The translations under genes and the position numbers were made by a program. Below the pieces are notes generated by a model. The model did not search any database and had not been told where the DNA came from. It saw nothing but the letters and a program-made list of their open reading frames with translations. A DNA stretch of 64,000 nucleotides from an uncultured Dehalococcoidales bacterium (GTDB lineage Bacteria; Chloroflexota; Dehalococcoidia; Dehalococcoidales; GCA-2688105), in assembly GCA_964499445.1 (NCBI GenBank), contig CAZCLE010000002.1:19677-83676 (forward strand), in the 5' to 3' direction. This document shows positions 24,036-60,141 of the stretch, in pieces; within the stretch, counting starts at the first letter, position 1; each line of letters begins with the position of its first letter.

Positions 24036-24070
24036 CTCATTATCACTATAAATAAAAGGGAGGAAAAAGA

Positions 24071-26853: not shown

Positions 26854-26871
26854 GCTCCGGGAGGTATATTA

Positions 26872-27807: not shown

Positions 27808-27827
27808 GAAGGGGGAAAGAAATAATT

Positions 27828-28916: not shown

Positions 28917-28932
28917 AGATAGCTAACGCCTG

Positions 28933-29085
28933 GGGTGTTAATGCTGTCACATGGCCGGAGTGTGATATCGGGTTAACTATGCCCAAGTAAAGCATGGAAG
29001 TGCTAATGGCAGCGATGAGGAAATGCGTTAAGCTCGGGTAATCGCTGCTAAAATTTGCCAGCATTGCTTTAGTCATATTGCCCTA
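28933..29085 (+). pseudogene. 3'-terminal remnant of a URO-D methyltransferase paralog plus its downstream non-coding tail
   Basis: About 150 nt align by eye at roughly 85% to 30067-30215, the last 35 codons of paralog 3 plus 45 nt after its stop. Conceptual translation GVNAV.WPECDIGLTMPK*SMEVLMAAMRKCVKLG* carries an indel and an internal stop. Confidence 0.6.
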
Positions 29086-29134
29086 AGATATGCTAAACCG
29101 CATATTTGAGATATAGTATGCAGAAAGGAATAGT

Positions 29135-42442: not shown

Positions 42443-42528
42443 TCGTTGTAGCTCTAATGGGCGTGAGGCGGGACCTTATTGGTAGCAGTAAACTAAATGA
42501 GATTCACCTTGGTAGGAGGAAATTGGCA

Positions 42529-43053: not shown

Positions 43054-43070
43054 AAATAAGGAGGGGAAAC

Positions 43071-43820: not shown

Positions 43821-45052
43821 GTGAAGTGAAATCCGCTAAAACGTATAAAGATAAAGCTAAAGCGGCAATAGCTAAATCAGCTGCCCTTGGTGATGATATA
43901 GATTTGGCTGTTTATGCTGACTCGGCTGAGGAGCAGCCATACCAGACTGACCCGTCAAAACTTCCCACCCGAGCCAAGGAGCAGATGCTGGAAGCCGGAG
44001 TCATTTTGGATGATGTGAGCCAGAGGTCAGGAACCTTTATCCAGATGGATAATACCCCGGTTCACAGTTCAACCAGGCAAGAGGGTATAGAAGTAATGGC
44101 GACCAGCCAAGCTTTAGAAAAGTATGACTGGATGTCAGACTACTGGTGGCAGGCAGTAGCCGTAGATACCGATAAGTACACCGCCAACATAGAGTTGAAT
44201 CAGAACAATGGTTACTTTATCAGAGCTCTACCTGGGTATAAAACTGTTTTCCCGGTTCAGGCTTGCCTCTATCTGGCAAAAGCGCGGCTAGCTCAGAATG
44301 TGCACAATATCATCATTGCTGAAGAGAACTCAGAATTACATATCATCACCGGATGCACCACTGCCTCCAGAGAGGAACCAGGACTGCACCTGGGGGTTTC
44401 TGAATTTTACATAAAGAGAGGAGCCAAGGTTACCTTCACTATGATACATAGCTGGAATCCAGAGGTAGCGGTTCGTCCCCGCACCGCCGTCATCGTGGAA
44501 GAGGATGGCTTATTTCTTAGTAACTATGTACTTATGAAGCCGGTTCACTCGCTGCAAATGTATCCTGTGGCCAAATGCGTCGGGGAAAATGCAGTGGTCA
44601 GATTTAGTAGTATTCTGGTGGCAGCCCCGGGGTCATCACTGGATGTGGGCTCTCGGGTACTCCTCAATGCTAAAGGCGCCAAGACAGAAATCATATCACG
44701 AGCGATAACTACTGGTGGTGACATAATTGCTCGAGGTTACATAGAAGGTAATGCTCCCGATGTCAAGGGTCACCTTGAATGTCGGGGACTGATTTTACAG
44801 GGAAAAGGCATGATTCATGCCATACCAGAGCTAAAGGGTACACTGGCTGGCATTGACCTGTCCCATGAAGCTGCGGTAGGTAAGATTGCTGAAGAGGAGG
44901 TGGAGTATCTGATGGCTCGGGGACTGGATCGAACTGAGGCTACGGCTACTATAATTAGGGGCTTTCTCAGGGTAGATATTGAGGGACTGCCACCCCTGCT
45001 CAGTGCCGAATTGCAGCAGGCTATTGAAGCCAGCGAAGAAGAGCTCATGTAA
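43817..45052 (+). CDS. sufB: SufB/SufD-family Fe-S scaffold
   Basis: The ATG at 43817 overlaps the sufC TGA (ATGA). The C-terminal beta-helix region ends with the motif LMARGLDRTEATATIIRGF, typical of SufB/D. Confidence 0.8.
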   Translation: MSEVKSAKTYKDKAKAAIAKSAALGDDIDLAVYADSAEEQPYQTDPSKLPTRAKEQMLEAGVILDDVSQRSGTFIQMDNTPVHSSTRQEGIEVMATSQALEKYDWMSDYWWQAVAVDTDKYTANIELNQNNGYFIRALPGYKTVFPVQACLYLAKARLAQNVHNIIIAEENSELHIITGCTTASREEPGLHLGVSEFYIKRGAKVTFTMIHSWNPEVAVRPRTAVIVEEDGLFLSNYVLMKPVHSLQMYPVAKCVGENAVVRFSSILVAAPGSSLDVGSRVLLNAKGAKTEIISRAITTGGDIIARGYIEGNAPDVKGHLECRGLILQGKGMIHAIPELKGTLAGIDLSHEAAVGKIAEEEVEYLMARGLDRTEATATIIRGFLRVDIEGLPPLLSAELQQAIEASEEELM

Positions 45053-45090
45053 TTGAAATTAGTTAACATAATTTGTAGGGGAGGTGGGGA

Positions 45091-45777
45091 ATGAATCTTA
45101 AGGCTTTACACAAGTTAAGTTACGGTCTATATGCGGTAGGCTCAAGAAAGGGAGACAGGCTTAATGGGCAAATTGCCAACGCCGTGTTTCAGGTAACTTC
45201 TGAGCCGCCGACTATTGCCGTAAGTATCAATAAGAATAATTTAACCCACGAGTTTATCACCGAAAGCAAGGTCTTTTCGGCTTCTGTCCTCTCCCGGGAG
45301 ACTCCCCTCTCTTTCATCGGTCACTTTGGCTTCAAGTCAGGTAGGGACATAGATAAACTTGAGGGCATTGATTATAAAATAGGTGAGACCCAAGCCCCGG
45401 TGGTTATTGACCACGCCATCGCCTATCTAGAAGCTAAAGTAATTCAACAGATAGACGTGGGAACTCACACTATTTTTATTGGTGAGCTGGTAGGAGCCGA
45501 TGTTATTAGAGAAGGCGAAATTATGACTTACGACTATTATCATCTGGTTAAGCGGGGCACTACTCCCAAGACTGCCCCAGTTTATGTTGAGGAGAAGAAG
45601 TTAGAAGCTATCAAAGTAGCCAAGTATAGGTGTTCTGTTTGTGGCTATATTTATGACCCGGAACTGGGTGACCCCGATGGGGGTATCAAACCAGGAACGC
45701 CTTTTGAAGAGATACCTGATGACTGGGTATGCCCGGTATGCGGGGCGGCCAAGAGCAAGTTTGAAAAAATAGAATAG
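45091..45777 (+). CDS. Flavin reductase-rubredoxin fusion (high-molecular-weight rubredoxin type)
   Basis: 228 aa. An N-terminal flavin reductase-like domain precedes C-terminal [12 protein letters not shown]...[10 protein letters not shown] rubredoxin motifs. Confidence 0.8.
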
Positions 45778-45792
45778 AGGGGGATAGTAAAA

Positions 45793-46170
45793 ATGACAGC
45801 ACTAAGACAGGTCTACAGGTGTAATGTTTGTGGCAACATTGTTGAAGTGTTGCATACCGGGAAGGGAGAGCTGGTCTGTTGCGGGCAGCCCATGGAGTTA
45901 CTTCAGGAGAAGGCAGCGGATGTCGGTCAGGAAAAGCATGTGCCGGTTATAGAAACAACAGACAGAGGAATGAAGGTCAAGGTTGGCGATGTCCCTCACC
46001 CGATGGAGGGAAAGCACTATATAGAGTGGGTGGAGGTAATCACCGATGGCGACATTTACCGTAAGTTTCTCAAGCCGGGGGATAAGCCAGAAGCAGAGTT
46101 TGAAATTAGACCACAAAAAGTAGTAGCTAGAGAGTATTGCAGTATCCACGGCTTGTGGAAATCCAGCTGA
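45793..46170 (+). CDS. dfx: Desulfoferrodoxin (2Fe superoxide reductase)
   Basis: 125 aa. The N-terminal desulforedoxin motif is [10 protein letters not shown]...CCGQPM. Centre II ligand contexts: [23 protein letters not shown]. Confidence 0.9.
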
Positions 46171-46171
46171 G

Positions 46172-46477
46172 ATGAGGTACTACATAAGGAAGGCGACAAG
46201 AAACTATCTTGTATTCTCCTTAATGTTTCTACTGGCCTTGTTGGAGGTCGTATCTGGCTTTGTTCTGTGGCTGGTTTTGCCTAGAGGAGACGGAGGCTAC
46301 ATGGGGGGCAGGGGTGGATTGGCTACCGAAGCTACCTTCTTGTGGGAAAGACACACCTGGCTTGACCTCCATAACTGGGTTGGGGTGGCACTATTAGTGG
46401 TGGTGGTGATACATGTGATTGTGCACTGGAAGTGGATAGTCCGTATGACCAGGAGTTTGGGCAGACAAGAGGAGTAA
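46172..46477 (+). CDS. Small membrane protein, DUF4405-like
   Basis: 101 aa. Two or three TM helices and a HNWVG...HVIVHWKW His pattern. It starts 1 nt after the dfx stop. Confidence 0.45.
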   Translation: MRYYIRKATRNYLVFSLMFLLALLEVVSGFVLWLVLPRGDGGYMGGRGGLATEATFLWERHTWLDLHNWVGVALLVVVVIHVIVHWKWIVRMTRSLGRQEE

Positions 46478-46492
46478 TTACGGAGGGGTTAG

Positions 46493-47338
46493 ATGGACAA
46501 GGATAAAATTATTAAATTACTAAACCAGGACCTTGAAGGTGAACATGGGGCTATTATTCAGTATTTGACCCATGCTTATGCTATGGGTGAGGGTGAGATG
46601 TCTTGCGAGATTGAAGCACTCGCCCGAGAGGAAATGCGTCATCTGGACTGGCTGGCGGAGACCATAGTTGAACTGGGCGGCACTCCCAGCTTGGAGCGGG
46701 GGAGTATGCGTATGGGTGGCGAGTCAGTGGCTGACTGGATGAACAACGATGTGCTGCTGGAAGAGGATGGCATAAGTCTGTATCGGGAGCATATTAAGCT
46801 CATTGATGACCCTAAAATTAAGCGGTTGCTGGAGCGTATCCTGTCTGATGAAGAATCGCACCACGGCGATTTCAAACACTTTGTAGATAAGGCACGGAGG
46901 GAAAGTGCCAAGGATGTGAGGGGCAGTCGTACCGACAAGCTTGTCCAGACTCTCAACTGGGGCATCGAGCATGAATATACAGTCATCCTCCAGTATCTGT
47001 TTCAATCCTACATGTCACCCAATAAGGACGTTAAGAAGGAGATGGAAGACCAAGCCATCAATGAGATGCAGCACTTGGGCTGGTTGGCAGAAAAGATAGT
47101 CGATATTAGCGGCAATCCAAGGATTGAGCACACCGAGATTGACCAGTCGACCAAGACTGCCGACATGCTCCGAGCTGACATCAAAATTGAGCAAGAGGTA
47201 GCGGTGGCATATGACCGCGCCGCTAAGGAGACTGAAGACCCTGACCTGAAAAAGCTTCTCCTCCGCATAAGGGACCATGAAATATATCATACCAATGTGT
47301 TCAGCGACCTGCTAGAGGAAGAGGAGAAGGGGGACTAA
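46493..47338 (+). CDS. Tandem ferritin-like (bacterioferritin-like) two-domain protein
   Basis: 281 aa. Two internally repeated halves, each carrying LxxDLEGEH/IEHEY..IxQYL and EEMRHLDWLAE / NEMQHLGWLAE motifs. Confidence 0.65.
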   Translation: MDKDKIIKLLNQDLEGEHGAIIQYLTHAYAMGEGEMSCEIEALAREEMRHLDWLAETIVELGGTPSLERGSMRMGGESVADWMNNDVLLEEDGISLYREHIKLIDDPKIKRLLERILSDEESHHGDFKHFVDKARRESAKDVRGSRTDKLVQTLNWGIEHEYTVILQYLFQSYMSPNKDVKKEMEDQAINEMQHLGWLAEKIVDISGNPRIEHTEIDQSTKTADMLRADIKIEQEVAVAYDRAAKETEDPDLKKLLLRIRDHEIYHTNVFSDLLEEEEKGD

Positions 47339-47361: not shown

Positions 47362-49296
47362 ATGTCACCTTTATCATTGCCTTTTGAAACGAGATATTGG
47401 CCTTTAAAGAAGGTTTTCACTATCTATGAGAGGTCAATAAAAGAGCCGGAGGCATTCTGGGCGGAGCAGGCACGCCAGCTCGATTGGTTTAAGACCTGGG
47501 ACAAGGTACTGGAATGGGAGCCGCCTTTTGCCCGGTGGTTTATCGGTGGGCAACTGAACGCATCCTATATATGCGTTGACCGTCATGTTAAGACCTGGCG
47601 ACGGAGTAAGGTAGCCATATACTGGGAAGGCGAGCCAGGAGATGTCAGGGTTCTTAGCTATTCGACTCTGTACAGCGAGGTCAACAAGTTTGCTTCCTTA
47701 TTGAGACGTGCCGGGGTGACCAAAGGAGATAGAGTAGCCCTGTACCTTCCTATGATACCTGAACTCCCCATATTTATGCTTGCCTGTGCCAGGCTTGGGG
47801 CTATACACACTGTCATTTTTTCCGGTTTCAGTGCTCAGGCTGTGGCCGATAGGGTCAACGATGTACAAGCCAAATTGCTGGTAACCGCCGATGGTGGCTT
47901 CAGAAGGGGGAAGGTGGTGCCACTTAAGGAGATAGCAGATGAGGCTGTTGCCCTGACCCCTTCCGTGGAAAAGACCATCGTGGTCAAGAGAACTGGTGTG
48001 CCGGTTAGTATGAAGCCGTCAAGAGACTTCTGGCTCGATGACCTACTTAGTAAGGCGGCGTCTTTTGTTGAACCTGAGCCAGTTGAGTCGGAGCATCCGC
48101 TCTATATCCTTTACACTTCGGGTACTACAGGCAAGCCTAAAGGAATTATCCAAAGTACCGGTGGCTATCTTGTCTATAATTACTCTACCTATAAGTGGGT
48201 CTTTGACCTGAAGGAAGAATCGGTCTACTGGTGCTCCGCTGATGTGGGCTGGGTTACCGGGCATAGCTCGATAGTATATGCCCCGCTGGCGCACGGGGCA
48301 GCCATAGTTATTTACGAAGGAGCCCCTGATTTTCCGACGGCTGATAGGTGGTGGGATATTATCGAAAAATACGGGGTTACCATATTCTATACCTCCCCCA
48401 CTGCTATAAGGATGTTCATGAGGTATGGCGAGGATTGGCCAAAGAAGCATGACCTGAGCAGCCTGGAGCTGCTGGGGAGTGTTGGTGAAGCCATCGATCC
48501 CGAAGCCTGGCTGTGGTATTACCGGCATATAGGTGGGGAGGGGTGCCCCATAGTTGATACCTGGTGGCAGACAGAAACTGGTGGCATCATGATATCGCCT
48601 GCCCCTGGAATAGAGTGTGTTCCACTGAAGCCCGGCTCAGCAACCTTCCCCCTGCCCGGAGTGGATGCGGCTGTAGTCAACGAAAAGGGTGAGACGGTTG
48701 CCGCCGAAGAGCGAGGGCTACTGGTAATAAGAAAACCATGGCCAGGGATGCTGCTCGGCATCTACGGCAACCCGGAGCGGTATAAGAAAGCCTACTGGTC
48801 AACATTTCCCGGCATGTTCTACACTGGTGACTACGCGGTAAGGGATAAGGATGGATACTTCTGGATTCTGGGGAGGGCTGACGAGGTGCTTAAGGTTGCC
48901 GGGCACAGGATAGGTACGGCTGAACTAGAGGATGCTGCCGTCTCCTACCCTCAGGTCGCTGAGGCGGCGGTGGTGAGCAAGCCACACCCAGTGAAAGGTG
49001 AGAGCATCATAGTTTTTGCCATACCCACAGAGGGAAGCGCTCCTTCAGTGAGCCTGAAGAAGAAGCTGACTGACCACATGCGGCGCGTGGTAGGACCTAT
49101 AGCCACCCCTGAAGAAATATATTTCGTGTCTAAGCTACCTAAGACGAGGAGCGGCAAGATAATGCGGCGGGTGTTGAAGGCGGTAGCTAACGATTTACCG
49201 ATTGGCGATTTAACCACCTTAGAGGATGAAGCCTCTGTGGAGGAGATAGTCAGGAGTTACCATGAACTCAAAATGGAAAGGGAAAAGAAGAAATAG
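47362..49296 (+). CDS. acs: Acetyl-CoA synthetase (AMP-forming)
   Basis: 644 aa. Motifs: YTSGTTGKPKG, WWQTETGG, YFTGDYA-like YTGDYA, LPKTRSGKIMRR. Confidence 0.9.
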   Translation: MSPLSLPFETRYWPLKKVFTIYERSIKEPEAFWAEQARQLDWFKTWDKVLEWEPPFARWFIGGQLNASYICVDRHVKTWRRSKVAIYWEGEPGDVRVLSYSTLYSEVNKFASLLRRAGVTKGDRVALYLPMIPELPIFMLACARLGAIHTVIFSGFSAQAVADRVNDVQAKLLVTADGGFRRGKVVPLKEIADEAVALTPSVEKTIVVKRTGVPVSMKPSRDFWLDDLLSKAASFVEPEPVESEHPLYILYTSGTTGKPKGIIQSTGGYLVYNYSTYKWVFDLKEESVYWCSADVGWVTGHSSIVYAPLAHGAAIVIYEGAPDFPTADRWWDIIEKYGVTIFYTSPTAIRMFMRYGEDWPKKHDLSSLELLGSVGEAIDPEAWLWYYRHIGGEGCPIVDTWWQTETGGIMISPAPGIECVPLKPGSATFPLPGVDAAVVNEKGETVAAEERGLLVIRKPWPGMLLGIYGNPERYKKAYWSTFPGMFYTGDYAVRDKDGYFWILGRADEVLKVAGHRIGTAELEDAAVSYPQVAEAAVVSKPHPVKGESIIVFAIPTEGSAPSVSLKKKLTDHMRRVVGPIATPEEIYFVSKLPKTRSGKIMRRVLKAVANDLPIGDLTTLEDEASVEEIVRSYHELKMEREKKK

Positions 49297-49544
49297 AGTG
49301 CCAGTAAAGTAGCTAGTGATGCTGAAGGACAGTAGCGGAAGGATACGCAATGTTGCCCCCCAACTCCAAAGACGGTATAATCTCCCTCGATAGGATGTAA
49401 CCTCACTAATCGTATAGATGGATACACATTGTTAACCCCAAACCCTGAAGATGGTCTAATCATGTGGAAGGGTAAACAGTCCAGGTTTATCGCTCAGCGG
49501 TTATGACTTGTCTACTATCTAATTAGTAAAGGAATATAGTCAAT

Positions 49545-50390
49545 ATGAGGGAAATTAGTGTTGAAGAAGTGACCAAGACAGTAGCCTGTCTATTTCAAGA
49601 GGCGTGCTATTCTCTCCCCGACGATGTGCTAGTTGCTCTCAAGCAAGCTAGAGAAATTGAGGAATCACCCGTAGGACGCGAGGTTCTGGATAGAATCCTG
49701 GAAAATGCAGACATTGCTCGTCGGGGGGAAGTGCCCCTATGTCAGGACACGGGAGATGCGGTAGTCTTTCTGGAGCTGGGGCAGGATGTCCACATAGTCG
49801 GTGGCGACCTCTACTCGGCGATAAATGAAGGGGTGCGGCTGGCGTATACCGAAGGCTATTTACGTAAGTCTATGGTGCGCCAGCCTTTTTCCGCAAGGGT
49901 CAATACCGGTGATAATACACCGGCTATCATTCATACTGACATTGTCCCCGGCGATAGGCTTAAAATTTCCGTAGTGCCCAAGGGCGGCGGTTGTGAGAAT
50001 CCGTCTCGTCTGGGCATGTTGCTACCCGCCAGTGGTCGTCAGGGAATCATAGACTTCGTGGTCGATACTGTAGATGCGGCTGGACCTAATTCCTGCCCTC
50101 CGGTAATAGTTGGGGTGGGTATCGGGGGGACGGTGGACAAGACTATGCTGATGGCTAAGAAAGCGTTATTACGCCAAGTGGGCGAACCCAGCCCGGATGC
50201 TGAGGCTGCTGGACTGGAGAGGGAAATTTTGCAACGGGTCAATAATCTAGGCGTCGGACCAATGGGATATGGTGGCAGAACTACGGCGCTTGCCGTTCAT
50301 ATTGAGGTTTTCCCTTGCCATATAGCTAGCTTGCCGGTAGCGGTTAACCTGCAATGTCATTCGGCTCGGCATAAGGAGGCAACTATTTGA
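49545..50390 (+). CDS. Class I fumarate hydratase / tartrate dehydratase-type Fe-S hydro-lyase, alpha subunit
   Basis: 281 aa. Motifs: PLCQDTG, VPKGGGCEN, GVGIGG. Confidence 0.8.
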   Translation: MREISVEEVTKTVACLFQEACYSLPDDVLVALKQAREIEESPVGREVLDRILENADIARRGEVPLCQDTGDAVVFLELGQDVHIVGGDLYSAINEGVRLAYTEGYLRKSMVRQPFSARVNTGDNTPAIIHTDIVPGDRLKISVVPKGGGCENPSRLGMLLPASGRQGIIDFVVDTVDAAGPNSCPPVIVGVGIGGTVDKTMLMAKKALLRQVGEPSPDAEAAGLEREILQRVNNLGVGPMGYGGRTTALAVHIEVFPCHIASLPVAVNLQCHSARHKEATI

Positions 50391-50452
50391 GCCGAGGCAA
50401 TAAATAGTTGACATAAGACTCAGCTATAACTCGTTATAGAGGGGGAAGACCG

Positions 50453-51727
50453 ATGTTTTTGACCAAGGAAGAGGAGGGGATGCTTGGTGGGGAATATGGG
50501 TCTGGTATACAAAGGTCAATGGAGCTGCTGGTCAAGCTTGGTGAAGCCTTTGATGCCGAAAGGATGGTTAGGGCGCAGAGTGCTCATATCCATTGTGCCG
50601 TGCCGTATGATATGCTTTTGGAGTTAACCGAAGGCGCTGGTCAGTGCCAGGTAACCACTACTACTCATCCTAATGCCTACCCAGATGTACTCGACCCTGC
50701 GGGCTGTAAGCGGATAGGTCTTCCCGAGAGTTATGATATATACGAGTTTATCCATGGGGGACCTTGGGGCAAAATAGAAGACATATTTAAGAGGCTTGGT
50801 TATTTCCTCACCTATACTTGCATTCCTTTTTACGTTGGTAATTTACCCAAGATGGGAGATGTGATTTCCTGGGGTGGCACCTCGGGGGCGGTTACCTGCA
50901 CCTCAATGTTTGGCGCTTGCGGCAGCCGTGATAGTGTACCGGCCAATGTAGCCACCAGTGTTACCGGTAGGGCTCCCTACATGGGGATGGCAGTTAAGGA
51001 GAACCGGTATGCTCAAGTTTTGGTTGAATTAGATAACCTTGATTTGGAGAATTTTACCAGCACCGACTACGGGGCTCTGGGTTACTATATTGGTGGCAAG
51101 ACGGGAAGTAAAAATGTGGTTATTAATGGTCTGCCCGAGACGCTTACCTTGGAACAATTTAGATATCTTGCCTCACCAATGCCAGTTTCTGGAGCTACTA
51201 ATATATGCCATGTGGTAGGGGTTACCCCGGAGGCTCGAACCTTAGGTGAGGCTTTGGGCGGAGGTAAGCCTGAAGAGGTAATCACCGTAGGCAGAGACCA
51301 TATAAAAGAGGCGGTGGATAGGTTAACTACCGCTGATAGTGATAAAGTTGACCTGGTTAAATTTGGCTGTCCTCATTGCTCAATTACCGAACTCAGGAAT
51401 ATTGCCTTGCTTTTGACCGGGAAGAAGGTTCATCCTGATGTGCGATTATTCGTGGCTACAGCCAAGCAAATGTATGTTCTGGCTGAAGCCATGGGATATG
51501 TAGATATTATTAAACAAGCTGGGGGTGTTTTCACTAACACTTGCCTGGGTTCGCAGGACCCCTTTAACCTGTTAGGTCCCAAGCTGGGGGTGAAGATTAC
51601 CGCCACTAACTCAGCACGGAGTGCTCACTATTCGGCAAGGACGAGCGGGGGCAAAGTCAAACTTCTCTACGGGAGTATGAAGCAGTGTATAGATGCCGCC
51701 ATAACCGGGAAATGGAGGGCTGCTTAG
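50453..51727 (+). CDS. Aconitase X catalytic subunit (DUF521), copy 2
   Basis: 424 aa. Motifs: LTKEEEGMLGGEYG, FGCPH, ATNSARSAHY, AITGKW. By eye it is about one-third identical to copy 1. Confidence 0.8.
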   Translation: MFLTKEEEGMLGGEYGSGIQRSMELLVKLGEAFDAERMVRAQSAHIHCAVPYDMLLELTEGAGQCQVTTTTHPNAYPDVLDPAGCKRIGLPESYDIYEFIHGGPWGKIEDIFKRLGYFLTYTCIPFYVGNLPKMGDVISWGGTSGAVTCTSMFGACGSRDSVPANVATSVTGRAPYMGMAVKENRYAQVLVELDNLDLENFTSTDYGALGYYIGGKTGSKNVVINGLPETLTLEQFRYLASPMPVSGATNICHVVGVTPEARTLGEALGGGKPEEVITVGRDHIKEAVDRLTTADSDKVDLVKFGCPHCSITELRNIALLLTGKKVHPDVRLFVATAKQMYVLAEAMGYVDIIKQAGGVFTNTCLGSQDPFNLLGPKLGVKITATNSARSAHYSARTSGGKVKLLYGSMKQCIDAAITGKWRAA

Positions 51728-52138
51728 GTGAAGCTTAAAGGACATAAAATAAACGGGGGCAGGGTAGAGGGTGAGGCAGTGGTATATAACGGTGCCTTCT
51801 CATTTTTAGGCGATTTTGACCCGGTTACGGGAAATTGCCTGATTAAAACTCCTGGACTTGAGGGGAAGAGCCTGGTTGATAAGATACTGGTATGTGCCAC
51901 CGGAAAAGGCTCGTCACGCGGTCCCTTGAATACCTATCGAGCTATGAAACTCAAGAAGAGCCCCAGGGCAATAGTCTGTATAGAGGCTGAACCGGTTCTG
52001 GCTGCGGCGGCGATGGTAGCCGATATGCCTATGGTGGATAGACTCAATGAAAATCCGCTGGAGGTGATTAAGACCGGGGACCGGGTAAAGGTTGACGGTG
52101 ACAAGGGGACAGTTGAGGTAATAAAGTCAGGTGACTAA
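51728..52138 (+). CDS. Aconitase X swivel-domain subunit (DUF126), copy 2
   Basis: 136 aa. The GTG start directly abuts the large-subunit TAG. Motifs: GEAVVYNGAFSFLGDFDP, TGKGSS, EPVLAAA. Confidence 0.75.
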   Translation: MKLKGHKINGGRVEGEAVVYNGAFSFLGDFDPVTGNCLIKTPGLEGKSLVDKILVCATGKGSSRGPLNTYRAMKLKKSPRAIVCIEAEPVLAAAAMVADMPMVDRLNENPLEVIKTGDRVKVDGDKGTVEVIKSGD

Positions 52139-52162
52139 AGTAATTTAAGATGGAGAGTCAAG

Positions 52163-52714
52163 ATGCCAAAGAGAGTTACCTTACCCCTGGATGATGAGAC
52201 GATACGAGACCTTAGAGCGGGAGATAGTGTTCTGATTAGCGGCGTCGTTTATGTGGCTCGTGATGCCGCTCATAAAAGAATGGTTGAGGCTATGGATAGC
52301 GGGTGCGACCTGCCCTTTGATATCCGGGGACAGACAATATATTTTATGGGTCCCACTCCGCCTAGACCGGGGCGGGTCATCGGCTCGGCTGGTCCTACTA
52401 CCAGTGGTCGGATGGATGCTTACTCGCCACGCCTGATAGCCAGAGGTCTTAAAGGGATGATAGGCAAAGGAGTCCGCTCGCCAGCGGTGAAAGATGCCAT
52501 GAAAGAACACAAGGCGGTTTACTTGGCCGCTATTGGTGGTGCCGGTGCTCTCCTGTCAAAGAGCATCAAGAAGGCAAAGGTAGTAGCTTACGAAGACATT
52601 GGAGCAGAGGCAATCCGACAATTAGAGGTAGAGGATTTCCCTGTCACCGTGGTAAATGATATCTATGGCGGAGACCTCTACCAGGAAGGTAAAGCCGAGT
52701 ATAAGAGAGGATAA
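52163..52714 (+). CDS. Class I fumarate hydratase / tartrate dehydratase-type Fe-S hydro-lyase, beta subunit
   Basis: 183 aa. Motifs: GDSVLISGVVYVARDAAHKR, GPTTSGRMD, GKG. Confidence 0.8.
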   Translation: MPKRVTLPLDDETIRDLRAGDSVLISGVVYVARDAAHKRMVEAMDSGCDLPFDIRGQTIYFMGPTPPRPGRVIGSAGPTTSGRMDAYSPRLIARGLKGMIGKGVRSPAVKDAMKEHKAVYLAAIGGAGALLSKSIKKAKVVAYEDIGAEAIRQLEVEDFPVTVVNDIYGGDLYQEGKAEYKRG

Positions 52715-52761
52715 GAGTTAAATAAAATTCTATTTGCCAGTCTGATAGAAGGAGAGTGAAA

Positions 52762-53916
52762 ATGGAGGTTTATCAGGTTACCTTCCCGAAAGTAATCCGT
52801 TTTGGCGTGGGCGCTCTGGATACCCTTGGGGATGAGGCTAACAAGCTTGGGGCTAAGCAGGCTCTTATTGTTACCGACCCCGGGGTTCATAAAGCCGGGC
52901 TGGTAGACCCGGTGAAGGAGCAGTTGTCCCGGGCTAAGCTTTCGGTGGAGGTTTTCTCTGAGGCGGAACCGGAGCCCACATTGCCCAGGCTGAATGCTAT
53001 AGCTAAGGAACTTGGCAAGAACAGTTACGACCTCTTGGTAGGCGTTGGCGGGGGCTCGAGCATAGACACCGCCAAGGGGCTCTCAGTCCTTTTGGCTCAT
53101 GGTGGAAATGGCCAAGATTATGTTGGAATTGAGAAAGTTCCTGGACCTGGCATCCCTATGTTCCTGCTGCCGACAACGGCGGGAACGGGGAGCGAGGTAA
53201 CTAAGGTCGCCATTTTTGACGACCCAGAGAAAGGGCTTAAAATGGGAATGGTGAGCCACTACCTGCTGGCCCAATTGGCTCTGGTGGACCCCACTCTTAC
53301 CTACGGGTGCCCACCGAAGATTACTGCCGCTGCCGGGATAGATGCCCTCGCTCACGCTATTGAGTCCTATACTAGCATCAACGCCAGCAACTTTACTGAT
53401 GCTCTGGAGCTTGAGGCGATACGACTTATTGCGGGTAGCATCAGGACGGTGGTGGCTGATGGTTCGGATAAGGCGGCACGCAGTCATATGGCTGAGGGGG
53501 CATTCTTCGCCGGCATTGGCATTGCCCACGCTGGTGGAGCCGCTGTCCATGCCCTTGGCCATACCCTTGGTTCGCGGTTTCACGTGCCCCATGGGGTAGC
53601 CATCGGCCTTTTATTACCCTATGTTATGGAGTTTAACCTGCCTGCCAGCCTGCCCAAGTATGCCAACATTGCCCAGATATTGGGAGTGAAGACGCCGGGG
53701 CTCTCTCTTCGAGAGGCAGCCGAGCAGGGAGTAGAAGCGGTTAAGACCCTGACTAAGGATATTGGCATTCCCCTCCATCTACGTGAGCTGGGAGTACCCA
53801 GGGAAGCCTTGGAGGAAATGGCAGCGGCTACCTTAAATGTTACTCGGCTCCTGGCTAATAACCCGAAGCCACTCACCCTGGATGATTCTAGACAGATTTG
53901 GGAGAATGCCTGGTAA
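52762..53916 (+). CDS. Iron-containing (group III) alcohol dehydrogenase
   Basis: I prefer the ATG at 52762 over the GTG at 52756, which abuts the SD. Motifs: GVGGGSSIDTAK, PTTAGTGSE, HAIES, HG. Confidence 0.85.
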   Translation: MEVYQVTFPKVIRFGVGALDTLGDEANKLGAKQALIVTDPGVHKAGLVDPVKEQLSRAKLSVEVFSEAEPEPTLPRLNAIAKELGKNSYDLLVGVGGGSSIDTAKGLSVLLAHGGNGQDYVGIEKVPGPGIPMFLLPTTAGTGSEVTKVAIFDDPEKGLKMGMVSHYLLAQLALVDPTLTYGCPPKITAAAGIDALAHAIESYTSINASNFTDALELEAIRLIAGSIRTVVADGSDKAARSHMAEGAFFAGIGIAHAGGAAVHALGHTLGSRFHVPHGVAIGLLLPYVMEFNLPASLPKYANIAQILGVKTPGLSLREAAEQGVEAVKTLTKDIGIPLHLRELGVPREALEEMAAATLNVTRLLANNPKPLTLDDSRQIWENAW

Positions 53917-53968
53917 GATACTGCCTCAGATAATGCCATAGGGATGATAAAGAAAAGGAGAACAACCG

Positions 53969-55843
53969 ATGAGTGACCGATATGGAGGGTATATAGGGAA
54001 AATCCTTTATGTGGAGCTTTCTAGCCGGAAGATTAACGAGGAAACTCTGGAGGATAAACTTTATGCCGATTTCATCGGTGGCTATGGTATTGGAGCTAGG
54101 ATTATATATAGTCGGCAAAAAGCTAAGGTTGACCCGCTAGGTTCAGGTAACACCCTGGGTTTTGTCACCGGCCCCCTGACCGGGACTCCTGCCCTGACCG
54201 GGACCAGATATACACTGGTGGGCAAATCACCATTAACCGGAACCTGGGGAGATGCCAATAGCGGGGGGCGTTTTGGTACCGTCCTTAAATCTGCCGGGTA
54301 TGATGCCGTCTTCTTTTCGGGCATTTCAGAAAGACCAGTATATTTGCTTATTAGTGATGGCAAGGCGGAGCTAAGAGATGCTGGGTGGCTTTGGGGGAAG
54401 GGTTGTGTTGAGACTGAAGCGTTACTTAAAGCTGAACTGGGGAAGGAGGCGAGCATTGCCGGTATCGGTCAAGCTGGAGAAAATCTTTCACTAATCTCGG
54501 GTGTAGTTAACGATAGTGGAAGAATAGCGGCTCGGTCGGGTTTAGGGGCGGTAATGGGTTCTAAAAAGCTAAAAGCGGTGGCGGTGATTGGGCATAATAA
54601 AATCCCGGTACAAGACCCGAGTAGGGCAAATGAACTGAGAAAGAAATATAGGGATGAGCTGAAGGGACGCCATATACCTGAAGTACTTAGTAAATTTGGC
54701 ACTTGTGGTTTTACCCCGGGGGCGATAAAGAAGGGCGATTCTGCCGTCAAGAACTGGGCTGGTGTTAGTGAGGTTGATTATCCTGACCTTGACCTGTTAA
54801 CTGGCGACACTATTACTAGCTATCAGGTGAGAAGACACGGCTGTTATAGATGCCCCATCGCTTGTGGCGGTATTGTAAAAATAGACAGCGGACCTTATAA
54901 GGTGGACGAATGTGGTAAACCTGAGTATGAAACCCTGGCTGTCTTCGGGCCAATGTGCTTGAACCAGGATAAAGAATCAATAATAAAGCTAAATGCTATG
55001 TGTAACGACTACGGATTGGATACCCTCTCGGTCGGAGGCACCATGGCCTTTGCCATGGAGTGCTACCAAAATGGGATTATCACCAGGGAAGACCTGGGGG
55101 GAATTGAATTAACCTGGGGCAATCCAAAAGCCATGATAGCTATCCTTGAAATGATGGCTAAGAGAGAGGGCTTTGGTGCCATACTTGCTGACGGTAGCCG
55201 GGTCGCCGCCGGGAAGATAGGGAAAGGTGCCGAAAAGTATGCTATGCAGGTTCAGGGGCAGGAATTCCCCATGCATGGTATGAGAAATGCTCCGGGTTAT
55301 GCTACCTCTTATAGTATGGACGCTACGCCGGGCCGGCATACGCAAGGGGGGTTTGCTTATGTTGAAAGATTTACCGGACAAATAACCGGGTTAGATTTCC
55401 CCGACCATGATAGGTATGATTATAGTGGTAAAGGGGAATGGTCGGCCAAAATGCATAACCTTTTTCACATACTTAACTCGTCTGGGATTTGTCTGTTAGG
55501 CTATCTGAATATAGATTTCAATTCTATACCGGAATTTATGAACGCCATTGTTGGGTGGGAATACACCCTGGATGATTTATTTAAGATAGGGGAGAGAATC
55601 GGTAATCTCAGGCAAGCCTTTAATATTCGTGAGGGGTTGAATCCCCTGGAATTTAAGCTTCCGGATAGAGCTATTGGTAAGCCCCCTTTGAAAAGAGGTC
55701 CACTTGCCGGTGTCACCATTGACGTTGATACGCAGGTGAAGGAATATCTTAAGGCAATGGACTGGGATATCAATACCGGGAAACCGAGCCGACAGAAACT
55801 CTTAGAACTAGGTCTTGATGATGTAGCTAATGACCTTTATTGA
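53969..55843 (+). CDS. aor: Aldehyde:ferredoxin oxidoreductase (tungstopterin AOR family)
   Basis: 624 aa. Motifs: GYIGKILYVEL, GGYGIGARI, GPLTGT, and cluster Cys contexts CYRCPIAC and CG. Confidence 0.9.
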   Translation: MSDRYGGYIGKILYVELSSRKINEETLEDKLYADFIGGYGIGARIIYSRQKAKVDPLGSGNTLGFVTGPLTGTPALTGTRYTLVGKSPLTGTWGDANSGGRFGTVLKSAGYDAVFFSGISERPVYLLISDGKAELRDAGWLWGKGCVETEALLKAELGKEASIAGIGQAGENLSLISGVVNDSGRIAARSGLGAVMGSKKLKAVAVIGHNKIPVQDPSRANELRKKYRDELKGRHIPEVLSKFGTCGFTPGAIKKGDSAVKNWAGVSEVDYPDLDLLTGDTITSYQVRRHGCYRCPIACGGIVKIDSGPYKVDECGKPEYETLAVFGPMCLNQDKESIIKLNAMCNDYGLDTLSVGGTMAFAMECYQNGIITREDLGGIELTWGNPKAMIAILEMMAKREGFGAILADGSRVAAGKIGKGAEKYAMQVQGQEFPMHGMRNAPGYATSYSMDATPGRHTQGGFAYVERFTGQITGLDFPDHDRYDYSGKGEWSAKMHNLFHILNSSGICLLGYLNIDFNSIPEFMNAIVGWEYTLDDLFKIGERIGNLRQAFNIREGLNPLEFKLPDRAIGKPPLKRGPLAGVTIDVDTQVKEYLKAMDWDINTGKPSRQKLLELGLDDVANDLY

Positions 55844-55899
55844 GGTTGAAAGACCTCTCAGTATGTAGCCGGTCAGCCACCCGCCTTTCCTAGCTAAAG

Positions 55900-55973
55900 C
55901 GTCCCTGGAGGGATTCGAACCCACGACCCGCTGCTTAGAAGGCAGCTGCTCTGTCCGTCTGAGCTACAGGGAC
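55900..55973 (-). tRNA. tRNA-Arg (anticodon TCT)
   Basis: The minus strand reads GTCCCTGTAGCTCAGACGGACAGAGCAGCTGCCTTCTAAGCAGCGGGTCGTGGGTTCGAATCCCTCCAGGGACG and folds by eye into a cloverleaf. The anticodon loop is CTTCTAA and the T-loop is GTTCGAATC. CCA is not encoded. Confidence 0.9.
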
Positions 55974-56827: not shown

Positions 56828-58021
56828 GTGGCTAAGATGACAGTCAGAGATGTGGAGGTTAGTGGCAAGAGGGTTTTAGTTAGGGTCGATTTCAACGTTC
56901 CTCTAGATGAAAAAACCGGGGTTATCACTGATGATAGCCGTATCCAGGCAGCACTACCTACTATTAAATACCTTATTGACCAGGGAGCAAAGGTTATCCT
57001 GATTTCTCATCTGGGTCGACCTAAAGGTGAAGTAGTTGATAAGTTACGGCTAACGGTTGTTGCCCAACGTCTATCACAATTATTAGGGCAGCAGGTTGGA
57101 GTTACTAAAGATTGCATTGGTGCTGAAGTGGAGAAGTCGGTAAAAAGCTTGAGGAGTGGTGATGTTTTGCTTCTGGAAAATCTTCGGTTTCATTCTGCTG
57201 AGGAGATGGACAGCCCTCTCTTTGCTCGAGCCTTGGCTAGGTTAGCTGACATATACGTTAATGATGCCTTCGGAACCTCCCATCGAAGCCATGCCTCAAT
57301 AGTTAGGATGGCTGAATATCTTCCTGCGGTATCTGGTCTGCTATTGGAGAAGGAACTTAATACCCTGGGCAGTATTTTAAAAAATCCAGCTCACCCCTTT
57401 GCCGCCATTCTTGGTGGAGCCAAGGTGAGTGACAAGCTGGGCATGCTCGAAAATATTGTGGCTAAGGTGGACTATCTTCTAATCGGTGGTGGTATGGCGG
57501 CTACCTTCCTAAAAGCTAAATCCTGCGAGGTAGGACAATCATTAGTTGAGCCTGACCGTCTGGATACTGTTGCCGGGTTAATGGAAAAGGCGGCAGGAAA
57601 CGGAGTGCAGTTGCTATTACCAGTGGATGTGGTTATTGCTGATGAATTTAGTGCCCAAGCTGAGGTCAAAGTAGTACCTATAAAAAATGTGCCACCTGGC
57701 TGGAGTATTGTAGATATAGGCCCCCAAACCGTTAAGAGCTTCTACAAAGAATTACGCCGGTGTAAAACCGTTTTCTGGAATGGTCCTATGGGCATATACG
57801 AGATACCTCAATTTGCTCAAGGAACGCAGACTATAGCCAAGCTCTTATCCAATCTTAACGCCACTACGATTATGGGGGGAGGCTCTACTGCTGAGGTAGT
57901 GATTGAGTTGGGATTAGCCGATAAGATGACCTTCATCTCTACCGGGGGCGGTGCGTCGCTTATATTTTTAGGTGGCGGAGCACTGCCTGGCGTGGAAGTA
58001 CTGCTTGATAAAAAACCATAA
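56828..58021 (+). CDS. pgk: Phosphoglycerate kinase
   Basis: 397 aa. Motifs: KRVLVRVDFNVP, SHLGRPKG, NDAFGTSHR, GGAKVSDK, STGGGAS. Confidence 0.92.
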   Translation: MAKMTVRDVEVSGKRVLVRVDFNVPLDEKTGVITDDSRIQAALPTIKYLIDQGAKVILISHLGRPKGEVVDKLRLTVVAQRLSQLLGQQVGVTKDCIGAEVEKSVKSLRSGDVLLLENLRFHSAEEMDSPLFARALARLADIYVNDAFGTSHRSHASIVRMAEYLPAVSGLLLEKELNTLGSILKNPAHPFAAILGGAKVSDKLGMLENIVAKVDYLLIGGGMAATFLKAKSCEVGQSLVEPDRLDTVAGLMEKAAGNGVQLLLPVDVVIADEFSAQAEVKVVPIKNVPPGWSIVDIGPQTVKSFYKELRRCKTVFWNGPMGIYEIPQFAQGTQTIAKLLSNLNATTIMGGGSTAEVVIELGLADKMTFISTGGGASLIFLGGGALPGVEVLLDKKP

Positions 58022-58044
58022 TCAGGAGTAAAGTTAAGTAGTAC

Positions 58045-58110
58045 ACCCCCTTCAAAGTGCTCTTCTCCCTTTCCTTTGAAAGAGAGGGGAATACGAAAGG
58101 TGAGGTTGAT
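58045..58110 (+). repeat. Intergenic GC-hairpin repeat, copy B
   Basis: CCCCCTTCAAAGTGCTCTTCTCCCTTTCCTTTGAAAGAGAGGGGAATACGAAAGGTGAGGTTGAT fills the pgk/apgM junction and ends at the apgM ATG. Confidence 0.75.
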
Positions 58111-59316
58111 ATGATTAATCTGGAGTTAATAAAATCCATTTCTAGGCCTTCGCCTACCAAAATTGTGTTATTAGTCATCGACGGCTTAGGTGGATTGCCC
58201 AGTCCAGAAACAGGTGAGACAGAGCTGGAGACGGCTAATACCCCGAATCTCGACCAATTGGCGGCTAAAGGTATATGTGGCCTTATTGACCCGGTGAGCC
58301 CGGGGATAACTCCAGGTAGTGCCCCCGGTCACTTAGCTTTGTTTGGGTATAATCCGGTCAGTTTTAATATTGGTCGGGGGGTATTGGAAGCAATTGGTGT
58401 GGATTTTGACCTTCGGCCGGGGGATGTGGCGGCTCGGGGCAACTTCTGCACTACGGATGAGATGGGTTTAGTTACTGACCGCAGGGCAGGGCGCATCTCT
58501 ACTGAGAAGTGTGCCGAACTGTGCCAATTATTGGATGGACTGGTAATAGATAAGGTCAAAATTCTGGTTTGGCCGGTTAGGGAGCACCGCTTTATAGTGG
58601 TATTTCGGGGGCAGGGTCTTATCCCTGACGTCAGCGGTTCTGACCCCCAGCAGCTAGGAGTAGCTCCGGTGGTGGTTACCGCCCTATGTCCCGAAGCTGA
58701 TGGGATGGCTGGTATTGCCAATCAATTTATAGCCCAGGCGAAGACAGCCCTGGCCGGGCATCATCCCGCCAATATGGTTCTCCTCCGCGGCTTCTCCAGG
58801 CTTCCTCAATTGCCGACTATGGGTGAGGTTTATAAATTGAAGCCGGCAGCCATTGCCAGCTATCCAATGTATCGGGGGTTAGCCAGGTTGGTCGGTATGG
58901 AGATTCTGGAGACAGGAATTAGTATTGAAGATGAATTTATGACACTAAAACAGAACTACGCTAATTATGACTTTTTCTTCTTACATATCAAAGGAACAGA
59001 TAGCGCTGGTGAAGATGGTGACTTTGACCGAAAGGTCAGAATTATAGAACAGGTTGATAACGCTCTATCCGAGCTAATAAGCCTGGAGCCCGATGTCATC
59101 GTGGTTACTGGTGACCATTCCACGCCAGCAGTGCTTAAAGGGCATAGCTGGCACCCGGTACCTATTCTTTTGTATTCTAAATGGTGCCGTCCTGACAAGG
59201 TAAGCCAGTTTTCCGAGTCGGCTTGTGTTTCTGGTGGGCTGGGGCGCTTTCCCGCTACCCAGATTATGCCTTTAGCTATGGCTAACGCTCTGAAGCTAAA
59301 TAAATTCGGGGCTTAG
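58111..59316 (+). CDS. apgM: Cofactor-independent phosphoglycerate mutase, archaeal ApgM type
   Basis: I prefer the ATG at 58111 (MINLELIKS...). The GTG at 58057 in the track lies inside the repeat element. Motifs: VLLVIDGLGG, TGDHSTP. Confidence 0.85.
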   Translation: MINLELIKSISRPSPTKIVLLVIDGLGGLPSPETGETELETANTPNLDQLAAKGICGLIDPVSPGITPGSAPGHLALFGYNPVSFNIGRGVLEAIGVDFDLRPGDVAARGNFCTTDEMGLVTDRRAGRISTEKCAELCQLLDGLVIDKVKILVWPVREHRFIVVFRGQGLIPDVSGSDPQQLGVAPVVVTALCPEADGMAGIANQFIAQAKTALAGHHPANMVLLRGFSRLPQLPTMGEVYKLKPAAIASYPMYRGLARLVGMEILETGISIEDEFMTLKQNYANYDFFFLHIKGTDSAGEDGDFDRKVRIIEQVDNALSELISLEPDVIVVTGDHSTPAVLKGHSWHPVPILLYSKWCRPDKVSQFSESACVSGGLGRFPATQIMPLAMANALKLNKFGA

Positions 59317-59370
59317 TTGTAGTCATCCATAAGCAGATAGGGTCATGAGCAATCTCTTTAGGGGGCTAAA

Positions 59371-60141
59371 ATGCGGGTGCCGATGATTGCTGGTAACTGG
59401 AAGATGAATACCACGGTAAGCCAAGCCGTAGAGTTGGTCAGTGAAATGCGCCACGAACTTGATGAGATAGATAATATTGACAAGGTAATTTGTCCCCCAT
59501 TCATTTCGCTAGTTGCGGTAGGGGAGCTAATTAAAGGCACCTCAATAAAGTTGGGAGCGCAGAATATGTACTTTGAGGAGAAGGGAGCCTATACCGGGGA
59601 GATTTCCCCGCTGATGCTGGCTGACCTGTGTGAATTGGTTATTATCGGGCACTCTGAGCGCAGGCAGTATTTTAACGAAACCGGAGAGATGGTTAATAAA
59701 AAGATTCTGGCCGCGCTGGGGGTTGGGCTGAAGCCTATTTTATGTATTGGGGAGAGGTTGGAGGAAAATGAGGCGGGAAGGACGGAAGAGGTGGTAACCG
59801 GGCAGTTAAGGTCAGCCCTGGCCGGGGTAAATCGCCCCAACGACCTGATTATCGCCTATGAGCCGGTCTGGGCTATTGGCACCGGTAAGGCGGCTACCGG
59901 TAAGCAGGCAAATGAGACCATCGGTTTTATTCGCCGTAATCTGGCTGAATTATATGGTAAAGAAATGGCGCAGGAGGTGCGTATTCTGTACGGGGGCAGT
60001 GTTACTGCGGCCAATACCGGTGAATTCATAAACCAGCCTGAGATAGATGGCGCCCTTGTCGGTGGGGCAAGTCTGAAAGCCAGCGAATTTTTGAGCATTA
60101 TCAGGCTGACCTCGGAAATTAGAGAGCACCTATCGGGGTAG
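59371..60141 (+). CDS. tpiA: Triosephosphate isomerase
   Basis: 256 aa. Motifs: IAGNWKMN, IGHSERR, AYEPVWAIGTG, YGGSV. Confidence 0.92.
   Translation: MRVPMIAGNWKMNTTVSQAVELVSEMRHELDEIDNIDKVICPPFISLVAVGELIKGTSIKLGAQNMYFEEKGAYTGEISPLMLADLCELVIIGHSERRQYFNETGEMVNKKILAALGVGLKPILCIGERLEENEAGRTEEVVTGQLRSALAGVNRPNDLIIAYEPVWAIGTGKAATGKQANETIGFIRRNLAELYGKEMAQEVRILYGGSVTAANTGEFINQPEIDGALVGGASLKASEFLSIIRLTSEIREHLSG

Follow-up and report, generated by a model that had tools for sequence, protein, structure and literature searches.

An uncharacterised AcnX subclass recurrently partnered with a two-subunit class I fumarase

We analysed a 64-kb stretch of contig CAZCLE010000002.1 from an uncultured, anaerobic Dehalococcoidales bacterium (hereafter, the window), in which six genes on the same strand encode, in order, the alpha subunit of a class I fumarate hydratase (fumA), the large and small subunits of an AcnX-type hydro-lyase (AcnXL and AcnXS), the fumarase beta subunit (fumB), an iron-containing alcohol dehydrogenase (ADH) and an aldehyde:ferredoxin oxidoreductase (AOR). 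All of these gene families are already known, and the ADH/AOR part is ordinary. The new elements are a defined, uncharacterised AcnX subclass with an apparently rebuilt active site, whose recurrent partner is a two-subunit class I fumarase, and a junction between the fumarase alpha and beta genes that has been colonised repeatedly in Dehalococcoidia-like genomes. We propose that the six genes combine three units in a mosaic (the fumarase, an orphan AcnX and an ADH-AOR pair) in which AcnX would act on a malate-like acid; we hold this composite picture to be about evenly poised between right and wrong.

Results

AcnX copy 2 is assigned to an uncharacterised subclass

The AcnX pair of the six-gene run is called copy 2 because the window holds another pair (copy 1). 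From its Pfam families (PF04412 and PF01989), the segment at 50453-52138 is an AcnX-type heterodimeric (Type II) hydro-lyase. The closest solved structures were those of Thermococcus kodakarensis (Tk) AcnX (7cnr_A, E 1e-48; 7cnr_B, E 3.5e-27), followed by Agrobacterium tumefaciens (At) AcnX. We mapped the published contact residues (Watanabe 2021, PMC8184944) onto an alignment with both enzymes. The cluster ligands were kept (Tk Cys110, Cys283 and Cys342 correspond to Cys123, Cys306 and Cys364 and are invariant in 25 relatives), as was the catalytic base of the small subunit (Ser62 in both), which lies within GKGSSRG in place of Tk GKGSTVG. The contacts to the substrate were replaced. The residue that binds the leaving hydroxyl (Tk Glu129, At Glu292) was Gly142, also invariant in 25 relatives; the substrate contacts Tk Lys361 (At Lys530) and Tk Asn79 were Arg389 and His72; the phosphate binder Tk Asn53 was Met54; and the phosphate loop Tk Gly48-Val49-Ser50, within Q-V-A-G-V-S, was deleted. 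The binder of the proline nitrogen, At Asp203, was His47. In the small subunit, Tk Thr63-Val64 was replaced by Ser63-Arg64, with Arg64 in the place of At Thr72.

The Gly substitution was common to both copies of the window and to every locus at least 40% identical. Meanwhile, Arg at the specificity position of the small subunit occurred only in the copy-2 orthogroup (motif GKGS[ST]RGP). W-G-G-[ST]-S-G, N-S-A-R and this small-subunit motif together form a diagnostic signature of the subclass. In AcnX Types IIc-f, which are uncharacterised, the landmarks of neither known activity are present (Watanabe 2021, PMC8184944). As judged from these residues, copy 2 is an uncharacterised 'Gly/Arg' subclass, i.e., one of Types IIc-f. 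A search of the literature on DUF521, DUF126 and COG1679, and on AOR or aconitase in Dehalococcoidia, returned nothing on this subclass or arrangement.

The two activities known for AcnX are those of mevalonate-5-phosphate dehydratase (Type IIb; TK1249/TK1248, 7cnr, and Aeropyrum pernix) and of cis-3-hydroxy-L-proline (C3LHyp) dehydratase, and we considered whether copy 2 has either of them. Copy 2 belongs to the same Pfam families as both, and JGI labels some relatives 'cis-L-3-hydroxyproline dehydratase'. It resembles Type IIb in having domains 1-3 in the large subunit, a small swivel subunit, the three cluster Cys and the catalytic Ser, and the chemistry is probably shared (removal of the alpha-proton and transfer of the beta-hydroxyl to the cluster iron). 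However, it is only about 33% identical to Type IIb, every mevalonate-5-phosphate contact compared (Tk Glu129, Lys361, Asn53, Asn79 and the loop) is replaced or deleted, and archaeal loci in the same alignment retain that signature in full. With At AcnX it shares the superfamily, two cluster Cys and the Ser base, whereas At AcnX has its subunits fused into one chain and carries a [2Fe-2S] cluster, and of its landmarks (Asp203, Thr72, Trp35/Ile206 and Glu292), Asp203, Thr72 and Glu292 are replaced in copy 2; the C3LHyp dehydratase model NF051439 gave 180 bits against a cutoff of 700. In the neighbour-joining tree, copy 2 lay far from both known branches. The 64-kb window contained no genes of the mevalonate pathway, including partners of its modified form (UbiD-type decarboxylase, UbiX and isopentenyl phosphate kinase), and no hydroxyproline genes. 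Either known activity is therefore very improbable for copy 2. The sequence-only reading of this DNA had likewise matched AcnX to neither activity and had named clustering with mevalonate-5-phosphate dehydratases, in a genome with the rest of that pathway, as one outcome that would overturn it; residues and tree both place copy 2 elsewhere.

We also tried classical aconitase, isopropylmalate isomerase and homoaconitase (PF00330 and PF00694), which were rejected as the match was local, covering about 85 residues, and reached 32 bits against a cutoff of 385. The sole feature common to copy 2 and this family was the Ser-Ser-Arg motif of the swivel subunit, which mirrors GSSRE in the classical aconitase-family small subunit of a sister locus and likewise corresponds to Ser642-Ser643-Arg644 of mitochondrial aconitase.

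AcnX is linked to a two-subunit fumarase in more than one lineage

The best PDB match of fumA was the fumarate hydratase 7xky. An assignment of the alpha/beta pair to L(+)-tartrate dehydratase TtdAB was rejected, as the scores were 194 bits against a cutoff of 365 for TtdA (NF006084) and 88 against 264 for TtdB (NF006082). The alpha/beta pairs of relatives, whatever lay between them, all passed the fumarate-hydratase cutoffs and none reached those of tartrate dehydratase. By these scores, fumA and fumB encode an ordinary two-subunit class I fumarate hydratase.

The order fumA-AcnXL-AcnXS-fumB was not unique to the window. In loci L012 and L013, with AcnX 79% identical, the order was acs-fumA-AcnXL-AcnXS-fumB (acs encodes acetyl-CoA synthetase), the fragmentary open reading frame (ORF) 3' of AcnXS being the N-terminus of fumB. 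Locus L111, with AcnX 60% identical, had fumA-AcnXL-AcnXS-fumB and was basal within the copy-2 AcnX orthogroup in the neighbour-joining tree, indicating that the fumA-AcnX link is as old as that orthogroup. In addition, four independent assemblies carried an identical AcnX gene, among them an 81-kb JGI contig and GCA_007279795.1.

In a sister group (L009, L015, L016 and L099; AcnX 82-86% identical), alpha and beta were 6-8.7 kb apart. The order there was mdh-fumA-AcnXL-AcnXS-ADH-(type II GAPDH)-PGK-AOR-(malic enzyme)-fumB-nadB-smpB, with mdh directly 5' of fumA in L009 and L099. The gene after fumB in L009 was considered as a fumarate reductase; it is nadB, encoding L-aspartate oxidase (TIGR00551, 563 bits against a cutoff of 453). 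NadB is able to use fumarate as electron acceptor, which may account for the conserved fumB-nadB pairing.

Locus L094, a very close relative of L009 (mdh 96% identical), had the order mdh-fumA-ADH-PGK-AOR-fumB-nadB, in which AcnX was gone. The 118 nucleotides (nt) from the fumA stop to the ADH start (3743-3860) opened with the terminal ~65 nt of AcnXS and continued with the spacer between AcnXS and ADH, and comparison with L009 9590-9750 placed the joint between this remnant and fumA at a shared TTAAG microhomology. By a clean natural deletion of 1.7 kb, L094 has lost AcnXL and the greater part of AcnXS. Because it keeps the fumarase, ADH and AOR without AcnX, AcnX represents an accessory function.

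Another locus, L014 (CP070810.1, a 'chromosome'), was set aside as proof of a distant fumB, since it contained 100-N scaffold gaps at 1954-2053 and 13455-13554. One such gap interrupted the cluster's GAPDH gene, so that genes missing from CP070810.1 cannot be relied on as true absences.

Copy 1 of the window was 43%/50% identical to copy 2 and of the same Gly/Arg active-site type, with GKGSSAGD in its small subunit. Its orthogroup was widespread and 70-94% conserved. In L176 (2671-4259) and L178 (7001-8712), a 75%-identical copy-1 orthologue stood directly after fumA-fumB, within dnaX-ybaB-recR-fumA-fumB-AcnXL-AcnXS-GntR-DctPQM (DctPQM being a TRAP transporter); L178 also carried a TonB-domain gene. 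A fumarase of this kind thus accompanies two different AcnX paralogues, each in its own context and the copy-1 orthologue in an unrelated lineage. The link between AcnX and a two-subunit fumarase, on which the sequence-only reading was built, is conserved beyond the interleaved order that it had proposed to check.

Metabolic genes have repeatedly entered the alpha|beta junction

We surveyed the junction by a fumA-centred metagenome scan, which gave 80 related loci (L094-L173; 63-79% identity), 63 of them with sequence downstream of fumA. The sequence-only reading had taken alpha and beta genes to be normally adjacent, which fails in this lineage, as fumB was the next gene in only 14 of the 63. 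The most frequent followers were sdhA-sdhC-sdhB (22 loci), identified via Pfam and NCBIfam. AcnXL came next in seven loci, a tartrate dehydrogenase in four (TIGR02089, 538 bits against a cutoff of 470), a set of Fe-S, flavoprotein and acyl-CoA dehydrogenase genes in another four, and ADH in one; the remaining 11 had other genes or no plus-strand gene within 400 nt. The Sdh-type loci formed a long superoperon of the tricarboxylic acid cycle, with a carboxyltransferase, PycB/OadA, aconitase-family large and small subunits, an isocitrate-dehydrogenase-like gene, mdh, fumA, sdhACB and fumB. The alpha|beta junction is thus a recurrent landing site for metabolic genes in the Dehalococcoidia-like lineage. 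Because separation of alpha and beta is the rule there, the split alone carries no weight as an argument for functional interleaving, and a split gene pair is by itself no evidence of it.

ADH and AOR are treated as an independent module

The ADH reached no NCBIfam equivalog cutoff (FucO, SarD and 4-hydroxybutyrate dehydrogenase were among the models), the best score being 340 bits for SarD against 700. Its closest solved structures were the NAD methanol dehydrogenase 8zrl, FucO and DhaT, and its counterpart 3' of AcnX in L009 and L014-L016 was 73% identical. The closest solved structures of the AOR were true, broad-range AORs (9g7j, 377 bits; 1aor, 370 bits), compared with 242 bits for FOR and 201 for BamB. 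By domains and closest relatives, the window AOR is an AOR proper, with W or Mo as the candidate metal.

The window AOR was only 31-33% identical to the AOR of L009-type clusters, which belongs to a different AOR subfamily. In L108 and L110, an AOR was found near fumA without AcnX. Adjacent ADH/AOR pairs stand alone elsewhere: in Desulfofundulus kuznetsovii, an organism that likewise possesses an Mta system, such a pair serves to oxidise methanol (PMC10907483), and in acetogens pairs of this kind convert acetate to ethanol (PMC5367853). In view of the non-orthologous AORs, the AORs without AcnX and these stand-alone pairs, we treated ADH-AOR as an independent module.

The six genes most likely form one transcription unit

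The order and spacing reported by the sequence-only reading held: the ORFs, with agreeing Pfam and NCBIfam identities (Table 1), were separated by 62, 0, 24, 41 and 52 nt from fumA to AOR, the stop of the large AcnX subunit directly abutting the start of the small one. A purine-rich stretch preceded each start, and no terminator-like site was found between the six genes. The 248-nt spacer between acs and fumA held a TTGCCC-17-TATAAT site inside a 45-nt direct repeat, whose copies (49338-49382 and 49417-49461) were 76% identical and 79 nt apart, with a pair resembling -35 and -10 elements in each. The repeat carried the element GGATACRCAWTGTT, which occurred nowhere else in the window. In L012 and L013, the -35/-10 pair, the second GGATAC element and the GGATACRCAWTGTT element were kept. 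The repeat may represent tandem promoters or a regulator site; the spacer gave no match to riboswitch or leader families of Rfam at E up to 0.1.

Given the spacer with its conserved promoter-like site, the lack of an internal terminator and the convergent tRNA gene, the transcription unit most likely spans fumA to AOR as one six-gene operon. The acs gene, which also adjoins fumA upstream in L012 and L013, is probably its own transcription unit or reads through into fumA. The suggestion of the sequence-only reading that acs belongs to the same route was not borne out, as acs is set apart by this spacer.

Table 1. Positions of the features described, in the window unless another locus is named.
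Feature	Position	Strand	Basis or remark
AcnX copy 1 pair	12487-14141	-	large subunit 12882-14141; small subunit 12487-12912
Oxygen-defence block	42457-47338	+	directly upstream of acs; conserved in L012
acs, acetyl-CoA synthetase (AMP-forming)	47362-49296	+	TIGR02188, 919 bits vs cutoff 725
Promoter-like region 5' of fumA	49338-49461	+	TTGCCC-17-TATAAT at 49353-49381
fumA, class I (Fe-S) fumarate hydratase alpha	49545-50390	+	PF05681, 383 bits; NF004885, 412 bits vs cutoff 276
AcnX large subunit (copy 2)	50453-51727	+	PF04412, 329 bits vs cutoff 31.5
AcnX small (swivel) subunit (copy 2)	51728-52138	+	PF01989, 79 bits vs cutoff 27
fumB, class I fumarate hydratase beta	52163-52714	+	PF05683 (Fumerase_C); NF005310, 272 bits vs cutoff 238
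Iron-containing (group III) ADH	52756-53916	+	PF00465 and PF25137
AOR family protein	53969-55843	+	PF02730 and PF01314 (AFOR_N and AFOR_C)
tRNA-Arg(TCT)	55899-55973	-	convergent; closes the six-gene run
pgk, apgM, tpi (lower glycolysis)	56828-60141	+	just downstream of the six-gene run
nadB, L-aspartate oxidase, in L009	14538-16067		after fumB in AcnX-bearing operon
nadB, L-aspartate oxidase, in L016	9573-11108		after fumB in AcnX-bearing operon

Related AcnX pairs lie in varied neighbourhoods

In L005 (8001-14680), a 72%-identical AcnX pair was followed by a CoA ligase with a citrate-binding domain of the ATP-citrate-lyase type, an ORF of 95 amino acids, a ligase alpha subunit, then a CitE/RipC-like acyl-CoA lyase and a PrpD-family protein; upstream of AcnX were genes for a fused E1 alpha-beta and a free lipoyl protein, as well as an AOR sharing 48% identity with that of the window. 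This block may be a citrate or citramalate cleavage module. A sister AcnX branch of Asgard archaea and Clostridia (L007, L017, L023, L032, L033, L035 and L176 7001-8643) kept the Lys and had GKGGT in the small subunit, with the catalytic Ser changed to Gly. Both halves of a split UxaA/SuyAB-like dehydratase (GD_AH and SAF) lay directly 5' in six of these seven loci, and only the GD_AH half was identified in L033. Genes for GntR regulators and TRAP transporters accompanied several of them, not the Asgard ones. Desulfobacterota relatives adjoined acyl-CoA synthetases, and L174 carried two AcnX pairs beside a 2-enoate-reductase-like flavoprotein. Two ORF clusters beside AcnX in high-GC Desulfovibrio loci (c13 and c14) were rejected as antisense artefacts of simple ORF calling.

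Discussion

We propose that AcnX copy 2 is a [4Fe-4S] hydro-lyase that would use the same chemistry as other AcnX enzymes: the Ser alkoxide of the small subunit would abstract the alpha-proton, and the unique iron of the cluster would act as a Lewis acid and take the beta-hydroxyl. The pocket may have been rebuilt for an extra anionic group through Arg389, Arg64 of the small subunit, His47, His72 and His392, and loss of the Glu may permit bidentate binding as in aconitase. The substrate would then be a malate-like hydroxy-di- or tricarboxylate. Foremost among our candidates is a tartrate isomer, from which oxaloacetate would be formed and would feed the neighbouring malate dehydrogenase and fumarase; next in order are D-malate or citramalate, giving an enoate, and then tricarboxylates. 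The product would join the branch of malate dehydrogenase, fumarase and fumarate-using flavoprotein encoded around AcnX. That C4 hydroxy-dicarboxylates specifically are the substrate is a tentative choice. ADH and AOR would form a known, self-sufficient module between alcohol, aldehyde and acid, probably handling methanol, ethanol or acetate. We count in favour of this reading the acidic theme of AcnX contexts, i.e., the citrate-type genes of L005, the UxaA/SuyAB-like and TRAP genes, the 2-enoate-reductase-like protein, the tartrate dehydrogenase that other, Chloroflexota-like loci have in the junction, and mdh.

Several points weigh on the other side. The predicted substrate class is drawn from neighbourhoods and a few residues, and the functional tie to the fumarase is likewise a proposal. 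The neighbourhoods are heterogeneous and some are sugar- or polyol-like (FGGY kinase, class II aldolase and DHDPS-family aldolase), contexts that a sugar-acid substrate would fit equally. L176 and L178 are interrelated (RecR 82% identical) and provide one extra independent case only. Finally, the 73%-identical ADH follows AcnX in every relative with AcnX at least 82% identical and enough downstream sequence, and some AOR lies within 8 kb of AcnX in several independent arrangements; AcnX may thus be functionally tied to ADH and AOR.

An alternative, supposed by the sequence-only reading, is that all six genes, possibly with acs, encode a single route in which a hydroxy acid or dicarboxylate passes through both dehydratases and ends in AOR/ADH redox steps. 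Tight packing without an internal terminator, the orthologous ADH in all close relatives and an AOR near copy-2-type AcnX in three arrangements (window, L005 and L009 type) are consistent with it. However, the AORs of the different arrangements are not orthologous (31% identity in sister species), the same block holds GAPDH, PGK and malic enzyme, and the junction elsewhere holds Sdh or tartrate dehydrogenase. L094 still has ADH-PGK-AOR without AcnX, L108 and L110 have an AOR near fumA without AcnX, the genomes of sediment Chloroflexi each hold between two and six AORs (PMC3971608), and ADH/AOR pairs function alone elsewhere (PMC10907483). We therefore regard a single route as unlikely. Chance is a somewhat stronger competitor: AcnX might act on, e.g., a sugar acid or an amino-acid derivative, its place in a tolerant junction of a streamlined genome being accidental. 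The many unrelated cargos of the junction, the dispensability of AcnX in L094 and the relatives of this AcnX type in sugar/polyol and peptide-transport contexts would all fit. However, the fumA-AcnX link dates back to the base of the orthogroup and recurs with the other paralogue in another lineage, and the other frequent cargos (Sdh/Frd and tartrate dehydrogenase) are C4-dicarboxylate enzymes too, which leaves coincidence rather doubtful.

A further possibility is that the copy-2 orthogroup is a true aconitase, as originally predicted under the name 'aconitase X', i.e., a hydratase acting on citrate, cis-aconitate and isocitrate, or on a close tricarboxylate, which in some Dehalococcoidia would replace the LeuCD/HacAB-type aconitase of the fumarase operon of sister lineages. 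Those operons have an aconitase-family pair and an isocitrate-dehydrogenase-like gene, which AcnX-bearing operons lack; the Ser-Ser-Arg motif is as in classical aconitase-family enzymes; and the 72% orthologue in L005 lies beside the citrate-binding-domain ligase, the CitE-like lyase and the PrpD-family protein. In addition, some sediment Chloroflexi have a Re-citrate synthase and no recognised aconitase (PMC3971608). Against this, neither an isocitrate dehydrogenase nor a citrate synthase gene was found in the 64-kb window or in AcnX-bearing operons (a classical aconitase gene was also absent from the window), and a natural relative has deleted AcnX. Type I AcnX was inactive on citrate and cis-aconitate (PMC5144071), although it is a different subclass, and PMC8184944 describes the substrate-binding residues of classical aconitase as not alignable with AcnX. 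An aconitase role is accordingly improbable, and we retain the mosaic with a malate-like substrate as the working explanation.

This explanation has a possible analogue in E. coli. The anaerobic L-tartrate route of E. coli runs from TtdAB through Mdh and FumB to fumarate reductase, with an Fe-S dehydratase making oxaloacetate, and the L009-type order mdh-fumA-AcnX-...-fumB-nadB is reminiscent of it. However, the dehydratase would be of the AcnX type rather than TtdAB, the alpha/beta pair is a predicted fumarase, no quinol:fumarate reductase occurs in AcnX-bearing operons, and tartrate as substrate is a guess. In the methylcitrate cycle, PrpD and aconitase likewise pair a hydro-lyase of the aconitase superfamily with a second, unrelated one, and this AcnX type recurs beside another dehydratase (FumAB, the split UxaA/SuyAB-like enzyme or a PrpD-family protein); the likeness lies in the gene pairing and does not imply a shared intermediate. 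The ADH-AOR unit resembles the pairs of D. kuznetsovii and Clostridium autoethanogenum, in which an iron-containing ADH adjoins a tungsten-type AOR, and D. kuznetsovii 17T has a MtaB/MtaC methanol methyltransferase system in the same organism, as does the present one. Unlike in those pairs, the window ADH/AOR is joined to a fumarase/AcnX operon, and its specificity is only predicted.

Two activities are known for AcnX, and as of 2021 no function had been assigned to four of its bacterial subclasses. Taken together, the signature, the paralogous copy-1 group and the fumarase partner reduce the substrates worth screening to a small set of malate-like acids. Should the enzyme prove to act on a tricarboxylate or on an isomer of tartrate or malate, this would close a gap in our picture of carbon metabolism among the uncultured Dehalococcoidia and Desulfobacterota that abound in the subsurface. 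If copy 2 were a true aconitase, an Fe-S hydratase of that activity would have evolved a second time and independently, and this would explain the sediment Chloroflexi reported to have no aconitase. We consider copy 2 to be a good, cheap target for de-orphanisation rather than a new kind of system.

Other features of the window

The closest genome records were Dehalococcoidia/Dehalococcoidales metagenome-assembled genomes, and an identical fumA was named 'Dehalococcoidia bacterium' in one source. A methanol/methyl-corrinoid system occupied 14530-30172 and included MtaB at 16170-17552, two MtaC-like B12-binding proteins, three URO-D-type methyltransferases, two RACo-type reductive activators, and MtrH-like, CobW and CdhD-like genes, which suggests methylotrophy in a Dehalococcoidia bacterium.

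The oxygen-defence block upstream of acs comprised rubrerythrin, a SufC-like ABC ATPase, SufBD, a flavin reductase-rubredoxin fusion, desulfoferrodoxin, DUF4405 and a double ferritin-like protein of 281 amino acids. Lower-glycolysis genes of the kind found downstream of the six-gene run (pgk, apgM and tpi) are carried by sister species within the fumA|fumB junction together with AcnX.

A protein of the arylmalonate decarboxylase family (PF17645; 2846-3631, + strand), a family that includes maleate cis-trans isomerases, is encoded 47 kb from the operon and is possibly relevant to C4-dicarboxylate metabolism. A predicted lipoprotein of 410 amino acids (11240-12472, + strand), which had no Pfam match, begins with MKIKLITLASLALVCFLGGGC; its gene lies between AcnX copy 1 and a gene of the metallo-beta-lactamase fold.

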